This document shows, in pieces, positions 38,294 through 39,794 of a DNA stretch of 64,000 nucleotides. Position numbers and translations under genes: made by a program. This stretch comes from Escherichia coli (GTDB lineage Bacteria > Pseudomonadota > Gammaproteobacteria > Enterobacterales > Enterobacteriaceae). The number at the start of each line of letters is the position of its first letter. The first letter of the stretch is position 1. The notes under the pieces were generated by a model. The model ran no database searches. It was given only the letters and a program-made list of their open reading frames with translations, and was not told the DNA's origin. The stretch lies in assembly GCF_048403405.1 (NCBI RefSeq), contig NZ_CP183129.1; one strand, 5' to 3'.

Positions 38294-38575
38294 TCAATAA
38301 ATCCCATCATTGCGATCAACCTCATCCTTAACCATTGATGCGAGCAGTTCTTCCAGTTTCTGCGCTGACAGCTTTACCTGGTGATCTTCAGCATCTTCCC
38401 GGGCTATTGTGGTTCGCGCAGTGGCTGATTTTGCTGACATCACCACAGGGGGCAGACGGACCATTGAACCATGGCCTCCGGAACAAATAAGGGCAAAAAT
38501 AACAACCACTATCGAAAGCTCACAAACTAACCGCAGCACGTTCCTGCATACGACGTATCTGCGGCATAATCCCAA
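38294..38575 (-). CDS. hypothetical 93-aa protein at prophage end (doubtful)
   Basis: ORF only; start lies inside the 214-bp repeat/hairpin; no recognisable family. Confidence 0.25.
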   Translation of the reverse strand: MGLCRRYVVCRNVLRLVCELSIVVVIFALICSGGHGSMVRLPPVVMSAKSATARTTIAREDAEDHQVKLSAQKLEELLASMVKDEVDRNDGIY

Positions 38576-38744
38576 TGATTACTCCCTGACAGGATTTGCA
38601 GGCCACTCAATATCAGGTGCAGTTGATGTATCAACACGATTCAACAATACCCGATATTTATTCCATGCCTCCAGCAACGATCTTTCTTCCTCCGTTGCGA
38701 TTTCCAGATCTACAGCATCCTGCAGTGGCGCAATATACTCACTG
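38531..38744. repeat. direct repeat copy 1 (about 214 bp, roughly 90 percent identical to 39581-39794)
   Basis: alignment by eye: ccgcagcacgttc...ggcataatcccaatgattactccctgacagg...ccagatct(a/g)cagcatcctg. Confidence 0.8.
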
Positions 38745-38848
38745 AATTCCTGGATGTAGAACTGTGTGGTGACGGTCTTCCAGCCATTCGGCTCCTGCTG
38801 TATCGAAGCATACCAGGCTATTTCAATATCGCTATGCTGCGGCAGCAT
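38579..38848 (-). CDS. tail fibre assembly protein fragment/variant (Tfa-like C-terminus)
   Basis: 89-aa ORF; C-terminal 50 aa ([51 protein letters not shown]) closely match the Tfa C-terminus at 39628..40212, N-terminus unrelated. Confidence 0.6.
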
Positions 38849-38904
38849 TTAACCCCTTGTAATTCATCGCCATAATTGATTTAATTCACAAATAAAACTA
38901 TAAC

Positions 38905-39573
38905 ATGGTGAAATCAATGAAAAAAAACACAGATGATGGGGCTAAAATTTACACACCACTTACCCTAAAGCTTTATGACTGGTGGGTTTTGGGAGTATCA
39001 AATCGGCTTGCATGGGGATGTCCTACAAAGGAACACCTTCTTCCACACTTTCTGGAACATGTAGGTAACAACCATCTGGATATTGGTGTTGGAACTGGGT
39101 TTTACCTTACTCACGTACCTGAGAGTAGTCTGATATCTTTAATGGATTTGAACGAAGCTAGCCTGAACGCGGCATCTACAAGGGCTGGGGAATCAAAAAT
39201 TAAACATAAAATTAGCCATGATGTTTTTGAACCTTATCCCGCGGCGTTACATGGTCAATTTGATTCCATTTCCATGTTTTACCTTCTTCACTGCCTGCCT
39301 GGAAATATATCTACAAAAAGCTGTGTAATACGCAATGCGGCGCAGGCCTTAACTGACGATGGAACTCTATACGGAGCCACAATTCTTGGCGATGGAGTTG
39401 TGCACAATAGCTTCGGTCAAAAACTGATGCGCATTTACAATCAGAAAGGCATCTTTTCAAACACAAAAGATTCCGAAGAAGGCTTAACACATATACTCTC
39501 AGAGCATTTCGAGAATGTTAAAACCAAGGTTCAAGGTACTGTAGTAATGTTTTCCGCTTCAGGGAAAAAATAG
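38905..39573 (+). CDS. class I SAM-dependent methyltransferase (prophage moron)
   Basis: 222-aa ORF with motif I LDIGVGTGFY; AT-rich; opposite strand to tail genes; alternative start ATG 38917 preceded by GGTGA. Confidence 0.75.
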   Translation: MVKSMKKNTDDGAKIYTPLTLKLYDWWVLGVSNRLAWGCPTKEHLLPHFLEHVGNNHLDIGVGTGFYLTHVPESSLISLMDLNEASLNAASTRAGESKIKHKISHDVFEPYPAALHGQFDSISMFYLLHCLPGNISTKSCVIRNAAQALTDDGTLYGATILGDGVVHNSFGQKLMRIYNQKGIFSNTKDSEEGLTHILSEHFENVKTKVQGTVVMFSASGKK

Positions 39574-39580
39574 CATCCAA

Positions 39581-39794
39581 CCGCAGCACGTTCTTGCTTA
39601 AGACGTGCTGCGGCATAATCCCAATGATTACTCCCTGACAGGGTTCGTAGGCCACTCAATATCAGGTGCAGTTGATGTATCAACACGGTTCAGCAACACC
39701 CGATACTTTTTCCAGGCTTCCAGCAATGAGGTTTCTTCCTCCGTTGCAATTTCCAGATCTGCAGCATCCTGAAGCGGCGCAATATGCTCACTGG
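39581..39794. repeat. direct repeat copy 2 (includes perfect palindrome ccgcagcacgt...acgtgctgcgg acting as convergent terminator)
   Basis: see copy 1. Confidence 0.8.

Follow-up and report, generated by a model that had tools for sequence, protein, structure and literature searches.

The ybcY locus

The window analyzed here is a stretch of 64,000 nucleotides of Escherichia coli (E. coli) DNA (contig NZ_CP183129.1) that carries, in order, trpCBA-yciGFE and the terminal part of a lambdoid prophage inserted in ompW. In VR50, where a 2.1-kb locus identical to the one described here is found, this prophage is a ~50-kb lambdoid element that extends from int, located beside a reconstituted ompW, to the ybcY end. 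The ybcY gene (38905..39573, + strand) is an open reading frame (ORF) annotated by the Prokaryotic Genome Annotation Pipeline (PGAP) as a 222-residue protein, WP_000240999.1, and encodes a class I S-adenosylmethionine (SAM)-dependent methyltransferase. The gene is located between two direct-repeat copies on the − strand, which were identified by repeat searches, BLAST and folding. The left copy (38529..38755) features the 3′ end of a second tfa allele, consisting of the last ~58 codons, and a hairpin in the 3′ untranslated region (UTR) at 38531-38564. The right copy (39579..39804) features the 3′ end of the resident intact tfa together with its 3′ UTR hairpin at 39581-39613. The resident tfa (39628..40212, −) encodes an intact tail fibre assembly protein of 194 residues, WP_000885577.1, which is of the lambda orf-194 type and matches phrog_105 with E=9e-101. 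An alignment with Citrobacter DNA defines a mobile unit (38756..39578, +) that consists of ybcY and ~150 bp of its own 5′ region, and the edges of this unit coincide exactly with the two repeat copies. On the left side, the PGAP label for 38579-38755 is 'tail fiber assembly protein, missing N-terminus', and the counterpart in E. coli K-12 is tfaX. This segment is part of an 89-residue ORF (38579..38848, −) that belongs to phrog_2341 and is read as a chimera, with residues 1–37 derived from the phrog_3893 family, a 79-residue phage gene family, and the remainder from the C-terminus of Tfa. The guanine and cytosine (GC) content is 41.1% for ybcY, 48% for tfa, 52% for the side tail fibre gene stf, 54% for the prophage part and 51% for the whole window, which bears out an earlier remark that ybcY is AT-rich.

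The gene and its surroundings are not new. In the DLP12 prophage of E. coli K-12 MG1655 the order of genes is tfaD (b0561), ybcY (b0562, a pseudogene on the opposite strand), tfaX (b0563), and then appY and ompT. A BLAST comparison determined that ybcY of the window and of K-12 share 98.95% nucleotide identity (669/667 nt), that the 150-bp upstream region is 98.7% identical, and that both repeat copies are present in K-12. The two loci thus have the same gene in the same divergent orientation, the same 5′ region, both tfa-3′ repeat copies and the same promoter-like hexamers. They differ in that K-12 ybcY has a 2-bp deletion at the conserved start codon, whereas the copy in the window is intact, and in that the K-12 locus is found in a decayed prophage by appY and ompT, while the locus in the window forms the end of a ~50-kb ompW lambdoid prophage and is followed by a DUF4376 fragment. 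The studied locus is therefore the intact allele of the annotated tfaD-ybcY-tfaX locus, which the preliminary description had presented as a methyltransferase cassette without recognizing that it was already known.

The locus is widespread. A 730-bp ybcY segment is present in 3797 of 5426 complete E. coli genomes (~70%), with at least 95% identity in all of them and up to four copies per genome. In the same set of genomes the exact 2.1-kb arrangement occurs in 762 genomes, the left junction (tfa fragment and ybcY 5′ region) in 3437, and the right junction (ybcY 3′ end and tfa 3′ end) in 3064. The gene is also present in 14 records of lambdoid Escherichia phages, in each case in the tail-fibre region, and one phage record names the methyltransferase gene 'YbcY'. 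The relevant papers that mention ybcY name the gene in lists only and give no functional data; microarray work mentions c0651/ybcY. No paper was found that joins the terms tail fiber assembly, moron, methyltransferase and lambdoid.

Start codon and 5′ region

Alignments of 36 homologues revealed that Met5 of the annotated protein is invariant and that all homologues start there. In DNA alignments the Salmonella and Enterobacter homologues do not have the upstream ATG at 38905. The conserved block at the start reads (A/T)GGTGAAAT(C/T)AATG and includes a GGTGA Shine-Dalgarno sequence (38907-38911) that is located 5 nt before the ATG at 38917. The conserved Met5 and Shine-Dalgarno sequence therefore suggest that YbcY is probably a protein of 218 residues that starts at ATG 38917, and that the annotated start is probably wrong. 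The opposite-strand, class I methyltransferase of 222 residues proposed earlier is thus supported in its strand and class, the latter by Pfam and phrog matches, but probably not in its length. The lesion in the K-12 pseudogene falls exactly at the Met5 ATG.

The sequence upstream of the start, TTGATTTAATTCAC...AAACTATAAC, is conserved even in the chromosomal gene of Enterobacter, and the block is kept in K-12, Citrobacter, Salmonella and Enterobacter, so ybcY travels with its own 5′ region. The conserved block (38857..38904, +) is a putative regulatory region that contains candidate sigma-70 promoters, and three rival hexamer pairs were identified in the window. TTGATT-17-TATAAC at 38876-38904 was noted in the preliminary description, TTGTAA-17-TTTAAT at 38857-38885 is also conserved, and TTAACC-16-CATAAT at 38849-38876 was found by a consensus scan. 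The scan demands a final T in the −10 hexamer, and for this reason TATAAC was not listed. In K-12, genomic systematic evolution of ligands by exponential enrichment (SELEX) gave an RpoD-holoenzyme peak in the spacer between ybcY and tfaX, where an H-NS site is also reported, and TTGATT-17-TATAAC was proposed there as the promoter (Shimada et al., PMC3946193). The binding of RpoD holoenzyme to this orthologous spacer was determined in vitro. The TTGATT-17-TATAAC pair is thus present and is the same as that published for K-12, but it may not be the exact promoter, since the −10 hexamer ends only 12 nt before the Met5 start codon, which would put the first transcribed base within the Shine-Dalgarno sequence or past it. 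At the other end of the gene, a strong hairpin (z −6.2) is located 8 nt past the ybcY stop codon and has no U-tract on the + strand.

Enzyme class and relatives of YbcY

YbcY matches phrog_2132 with E=4.2e-157, with residues 5–222 aligned to positions 1–218 of the 218-position profile, and phrog_2132 is a family without an assigned function. Pfam searches matched Methyltransf_12 (6e-9), Methyltransf_23 (1e-6), Methyltransf_25 (7e-6), Methyltransf_11 (6e-5) and Methyltransf_31 (2e-4). YbcY features motif I of the class I enzymes, D59-I-G-V-G-T-G65, which is invariant in the 36 homologues together with D81, and it features the alternating alpha/beta fold with a seven-stranded sheet. The AlphaFold2 model of the protein has a predicted local distance difference test (pLDDT) score of 90.5. 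Searches of NCBIfam returned sub-threshold matches only, to CpaM, RquA and PmtA at 16–18 bits against cutoffs of 175–390. The profile and structure searches that had been recommended for the protein thus give a class I fold of the small-molecule type and a phrog_2132 assignment, while the curated NCBIfam cutoffs are not reached.

The statement that YbcY lacks DPPY and NPPY motifs was upheld by a motif scan and by Pfam. No (D/N/S)PP(Y/F/W) motif is present in YbcY, the combination of motifs typical of C5 enzymes is absent (one ENV, no PC), and no Pfam family of DNA methyltransferases matches the protein. A role as a DNA or RNA methyltransferase or in anti-restriction was rejected on the basis of these missing motifs, the lack of a fitting Pfam family, and the small-molecule fold neighbours. 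A PADLOC search for defence-system components gave only mad2 at E=0.009 and 12.9 bits, which does not identify YbcY as such a component. YbcY has no hydrophobic segment or signal peptide, with a maximum Kyte-Doolittle value of 0.95 over 19 residues.

The fold neighbours of YbcY in the PDB are all small-molecule or lipid methyltransferases. UbiG/UbiE, PmtA, JHAMT, NodS and Rv0560c share 10–21% identity with YbcY and reach no family cutoff, so these similarities show only that the fold class is of the small-molecule type. Closer relatives were found in AFDB50, and among them the fungal alpha-pyrone O-methyltransferases alone have been characterized. The protein named 'Methyltransferase verB', from the verrucosidin cluster, is 37% identical (TMq 0.90, E=6e-26), and many other fungal homologues share 35–47% identity with a TM score of ~0.9. 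The bacterial members in AFDB50 include proteins from enterobacteria, Pseudomonas, Vibrio, Legionella, Streptomyces and mycobacteria. The verrucosidin cluster has been described (PMC8176439), and DovB, the orthologue of VerB, was shown experimentally to O-methylate an alpha-pyrone hydroxyl, as do AurB, CtvB and AstB (PMC12312803). These fungal enzymes are ~220–230 residues long, have the same fold as YbcY and are homologous to it over their full length. They differ in that they are tailoring enzymes in polyketide gene clusters, while ybcY and its bacterial homologues are singletons without biosynthetic neighbours. The neighbours of ybcY are phage tail genes and those of the homologues in other bacteria are unrelated housekeeping genes, rather than members of a polyketide synthase cluster. 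No conserved partner gene was found beside the homologues in Enterobacter, Salmonella, Citrobacter, an Edaphobacter-like bacterium and a Francisellaceae bacterium, where the contexts are unrelated. The family is small, with 414 clusters at 50% identity and E<=1e-30 among 1.84 billion representatives, and the source names of the distant clusters provide only the automatic label 'UbiE'. Taken with the modeled fold, these relatives suggest that YbcY is a stand-alone small-molecule methyltransferase, most probably one that O-methylates an acidic hydroxyl of the enol or phenol type.

The ratio of nonsynonymous to synonymous substitution rates (dN/dS) of ybcY is 0.21 in comparison with Citrobacter, 0.11 with Salmonella and 0.115 with the chromosomal homologue of Enterobacter, at dS values of up to >1. 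In the 36 homologues, which are 56–90% identical, 60 positions are invariant and include Y24-D25-W26-W27, H105-D106, Y126, H129-C130, N168 and Y178-N179. The YbcY protein cluster at 100% identity has 6589 member sequences. This pattern of substitution indicates that ybcY is a functional gene under purifying selection.

The direct repeats

The preliminary description placed a ~90% identical direct repeat at 38531-38744 and 39581-39794, which was right to within 2 nt according to the repeat search and BLAST. The repeat search determined that the two copies consist of segments of 197 nt (38559-38755 and 39608-39804; 89%) and 28 nt (38529-38556 and 39579-39606; 89%) with a 1-bp indel between them. 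A BLAST alignment of 38529-38744 with 39579-39793 has 193/216 identical positions and 1 gap (E=4e-77), which is far above chance, and the similarity runs on ungapped to 38755 and 39804. Each copy contains the last ~58 codons of tfa, followed by ~50 nt of 3′ UTR in which a stable hairpin forms, consistent with the earlier statement that the repeat covers the tfa 3′ end and a palindrome. Folding of an 81-nt stretch gave −37.5 kcal/mol (z −5.8) for the right copy and −28.5 kcal/mol (z −3.3) for the left copy.

The copies differ at 22 sites of the coding part, and 14 of these are third codon positions, with a dS of 0.41 and a dN/dS of 0.18. The differences are mostly synonymous, and therefore the copies diverged while both encoded a functional Tfa. 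On this evidence the repeats are the 3′ ends of two different tfa alleles that were joined by recombination between phages. An in situ tandem duplication followed by decay was ruled out as the origin of the repeats, since the copies differ mainly at synonymous sites.

The repeat sequence is present as a single copy in phage lambda (22381-22608), with 90.4% nucleotide identity to the right copy, and it covers tfa codons ~137–194 and 51 nt downstream. The boundary between lambda tfa (orf-194) and the b region is similar to the locus in the window in that the repeat unit is a lambda-type tfa 3′ end with its downstream hairpin, and in that the first gene past tfa, ea47, is also an accessory gene on the opposite strand. 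It differs in that ybcY is absent and the tfa 3′ end is present only once. In phage ev243, ybcY is located between two tfa fragments and there is no intact tfa of the lambda orf-194 type. In phage Kati (6670-8357), a DNA invertase gene and ~1 kb of other sequence with poor annotation lie between ybcY and tfa, and phage Turner is alike. The ybcY slot can thus adjoin an invertase of the type linked to invertible tail-fibre segments. Phages Kati and Turner also have an appY-like regulator on the other side of ybcY. The comparisons with ev243, Kati and lambda show the usual mosaic joints at conserved tfa 3′ ends.

Capture and loss of the cassette

The region 38762-39585 of the window aligns with contigs of Citrobacter freundii over 825 bp at 91.8% nucleotide identity, and the homology ends at both repeat boundaries. 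The Citrobacter freundii YbcY homologue is 90% identical at the protein level. In Citrobacter there is no tfa on either side of ybcY; the left flank is an intact 79-residue ORF, a full-length phrog_3893 member, and the right flank is dinI. A CdiI-type immunity gene is found near the Citrobacter unit (contig positions 5800-7700), and the setting is a prophage end or an island near purB. Since the Citrobacter unit lacks tfa flanks, the first association of ybcY with a phage did not occur through tfa homology.

The left junction in E. coli provides a second view of this history. Tfa families match residues 29–87 of the 89-residue ORF (phrog_105, E=2e-22), phrog_2341 matches its full length (E=4e-61), and phrog_3893 matches residues 3–37. 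A tblastn comparison showed that residues 1–37 are 76% identical to the 79-residue Citrobacter protein. This identity, in combination with the Tfa C-terminal match, indicates that the phrog_2341 ORF is a chimera of the N-terminus of the 79-residue gene and the C-terminus of Tfa. The left junction is accordingly described as an illegitimate fusion inside an unrelated 79-residue phage gene. Relatives of the 79-residue gene are located at 20–22 kb in HK225, mEp390 and HK140, a position that we read, on the model of the lambda map, as the probable distal end of the tail operon.

Sites without the cassette were searched for with a synthetic query that joined the left flank, one repeat copy and tfa. 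Two strains, EFF60 and 190693, each gave a single continuous alignment of 1052 bp with this query, at 99.4% and 99.0%, respectively. Both carry the same ompW prophage with tfa followed directly by the DUF4376 fragment and without ybcY. The preliminary description had called for a comparison of prophages for presence or absence of the cassette, and these two strains supply it, each with a single repeat copy that is chimeric. The copy is of the left type beside the DUF4376 flank and of the right type beside tfa. The switch between the two types is located in the 3′ UTR near 38557-38575 in EFF60, and near 38583-38630, with one extra left-type site, in 190693. Because the switch point in 190693 is further in, its Tfa is listed under another accession, WP_000885578.1 and not WP_000885577.1. 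Chimeric repeats whose switch points differ are the signature expected of recombination within the repeats, which is supported by these sequences, and the simplest reading is that the empty sites of EFF60 and 190693 arose by deletion rather than being ancestral. Only these two clear ybcY-less sites were found, in comparison with 762 filled loci of the same type. The preliminary description proposed that the cassette was captured, or can be exchanged, through tfa 3′ ends; exchange is supported by the chimeric empty sites, but the original capture by this route is not, given the Citrobacter unit without tfa.

The ybcY unit as a probable moron

A moron is an independent accessory transcription unit in a phage genome, as defined by Juhala and Hendrix. 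Cargo loci are found downstream of tail-fibre genes in other prophages, for example the exchangeable effector loci of O157 prophages. The ybcY unit is inserted between genes that are adjacent in the related prophages of EFF60 and 190693, and its base composition deviates from that of its surroundings (41.1% GC versus 48–54%). It resembles lambdoid morons such as lom and bor in being an accessory gene with a deviating GC content and its own putative regulatory region, located at the tail-fibre end and absent from otherwise identical prophages. It differs from them in that YbcY is a cytoplasmic methyltransferase and not a surface protein or a secreted effector. The duplicated tfa 3′ ends that serve as flanks are specific to the ybcY locus in comparison with the classical morons.

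The explanation favored here, and held with moderate confidence, is that the window contains an intact ybcY locus in which a self-contained moron encodes a small-molecule methyltransferase and is flanked by the 3′ ends of two tfa alleles that function as recombination arms. In this explanation ybcY would be transcribed in lysogens from its own sigma-70 promoter, independent of the late tail operon, and its expression would probably be dampened by H-NS. A transcription unit of its own would make ybcY a moron or lysogenic-conversion gene rather than a virion or DNA-modification function. The 3′ ends of two functional tfa alleles, each with its terminator hairpin, would have been placed side by side by recombination between lambdoid phages, with the left junction formed by an illegitimate fusion inside the 79-residue gene at the end of the tail operon. 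Conservation of the tfa 3′ ends across lambdoid phages would let the repeats act as homology arms. A crossover between the repeats would delete the ybcY cassette, and a misaligned crossover between phages would move it to another tail-fibre module. Of these elements, the layout of the locus, its identity with ybcY, its prevalence, the purifying selection, the coding-type divergence of the repeats and the empty sites with their chimeric repeats are shown by the data, and the class of substrate, expression in lysogens and a benefit to the host are proposed.

Other explanations have been considered for the gene and for its flanks. YbcY may be an envelope-modifying conversion enzyme, either a PmtA-like phospholipid N-methyltransferase or a lipopolysaccharide (LPS) methylase, that alters adsorption or superinfection. 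This would explain the position of ybcY by tail-fibre, lom and ompT genes, and its only basis is the distant fold similarity to PmtA. The identity to PmtA is 15–17% and the NCBIfam score is 15.7 bits against a cutoff of 390 bits, while far closer relatives (37–47% identity) are fungal small-molecule O-methyltransferases. YbcY also lacks a signal peptide and a hydrophobic segment, and its chromosomal homologues are not beside LPS or lipid genes, so an envelope role is judged improbable. There is likewise little probability that ybcY is a functionless hitch-hiker in a recombination-prone tail-fibre module and that the repeats are mere scars. The dead K-12 copy with its 2-bp start-codon deletion, truncated database variants such as the 161-residue and 130-residue clusters, the H-NS binding that suggests silencing, and a K-12 ybcY mutant without a phenotype in the one screen found are all in line with such a gene. 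They are opposed by the dN/dS of 0.1–0.2 over dS of up to >1 across genera, by the 60 invariant residues that include the SAM-binding motifs, and by the dominance of the intact allele (6589 identical members). The conservation of the 5′ regulatory block and the finding of two clear losses only, against 762 filled copies, point in the same direction.

A link to tfa that is functional and not positional would be expected if YbcY served lytic growth of the phage, for example if its methylation target were Tfa, the tail fibre or some other protein of the virion or the host. Sequence from tfa is found on each side of ybcY in 81–91% of the ybcY-carrying E. coli genomes, and 14/14 phage copies are in the tail-fibre region. 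The gene, however, runs in the opposite direction to the late operon and carries a conserved 5′ region of its own, homologues of 56–68% identity are chromosomal singletons far from phage genes, and the copies in Citrobacter and Salmonella have no tfa. Phage ev243 has ybcY between two tfa fragments and no intact tfa of the lambda orf-194 type, and the fold neighbours of YbcY are small-molecule enzymes. These observations leave a lytic role very improbable. For the flanks, Rfam suggests that the repeats might be conserved as a small RNA (sRNA), in which case two sRNA genes, and not coding remnants, would border the cassette. RF02111 (IS009) matches 39671-39869 (−) with 225.2 bits, above the gathering score of 117, and 38622-38825 (−) with 112.5 bits. 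The left repeat copy is thus under the gathering score, and the IS009 match is located inside the tfa reading frame on the sense strand. The changes between the copies pile up at third codon positions (14/22; dN/dS 0.18), as protein-coding constraint predicts and as was described above for the two tfa alleles. A study in enterohaemorrhagic E. coli (EHEC) excludes IS009 as an intragenic same-strand element. IS009 therefore looks like a fragment of the tfa gene rather than an sRNA, and a pair of sRNA genes at this locus is scarcely credible. The self-contained moron with recombining tfa ends remains the favored explanation.

A more specific version of the favored explanation was also proposed, in which YbcY is a lysogenic-conversion O-methyltransferase with a specific gut-relevant substrate and the tfa-3′ arms let the cassette hop between tail-fibre modules. 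This proposal is speculative and is considered unlikely as it stands. Candidate substrates include compounds of the pyrone, hydroxycoumarin, hydroxyquinolone or catechol type that come from microbes or the diet, and natural products active against phages or bacteria that methylation would neutralize.

Other features of the window and the prophage

Upstream of tfa, stf (40212..43238, −) is an annotated side tail fibre gene of 1008 residues. The part of stf at 41700–43000 features a long low-complexity stretch that is rich in Ala, Ser and Thr and has 58–61% GC. This stretch gives spurious long ORFs, for example 41834-42952 and 42004-42741, and weak sub-threshold Rfam matches to isrG. A 45-residue 'hypothetical protein', WP_001309429.1 (39518-39655, −), is annotated by RefSeq across the hairpin, overlapping both the 3′ end of ybcY and the stop region of tfa, and is most likely an annotation artefact.

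Toward the end of the prophage, a pseudogene fragment of a DUF4376-type or further tail-fibre gene (38213..38482, −) is annotated by PGAP as 'DUF4376 domain-containing protein, internal stop, missing N-terminus' and matches phrog_7703 and phrog_1141 (tail fiber protein). Located between the tfa fragment and the prophage end, it forms a third layer of tail-fibre debris, which suggests that module replacement has occurred here more than once. The junction between the prophage and the chromosome is marked by a displaced ompW 3′ fragment (37865..37990, −), which was identified from the PGAP annotation of the identical VR50 locus. In VR50 an intact ompW adjoins the integrase at the opposite prophage end, and therefore the phage brings a replacement ompW 3′ end.

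Other cargo-like genes of the VR50 prophage (noted at 18103-19607 and 12229-12894 of its sequence) are a pair past Q that encodes a Ser/Thr kinase and a PP2C phosphatase, the gene for a QueH-like epoxyqueuosine reductase, three tRNA genes and the gene for a SASA-family esterase. The tape-measure gene of this prophage is frameshifted in VR50. In the chromosomal part of the window, yciG has an internal 45-nt direct repeat at 36541-36651 that is 78% identical with a spacing of 66 nt and reflects a repeated GG-rich peptide motif in the YciG stress protein.

Implications

The ybcY gene is among the most widespread cargo genes of E. coli prophages and is clearly under purifying selection, and it is without an assigned function in part because the K-12 reference copy is a pseudogene. 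New here are the connection to fungal enzymes that O-methylate pyrones, a probable correction of the start codon, the findings that the 'tfaX-type' ORF is a chimera and that the repeats derive from two alleles, and the concrete recombinant empty sites. The practical leads are a testable enzyme class, the relatives of fungal alpha-pyrone O-methyltransferases, together with the probable start codon, Met5, and the recombining 3′ ends of different tfa alleles. If the proposal of a gut-relevant substrate and a hopping cassette is true, the benefit to the host and the hopping would explain the presence of 1–4 nearly identical copies in ~70% of E. coli genomes. As lambdoid cargo at a tail-fibre end, the locus follows a well-known pattern and is real but ordinary. 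It leaves views of lambdoid mosaicism unchanged and illustrates how the conserved ends of tail-fibre-chaperone genes serve as recombination arms for accessory genes.

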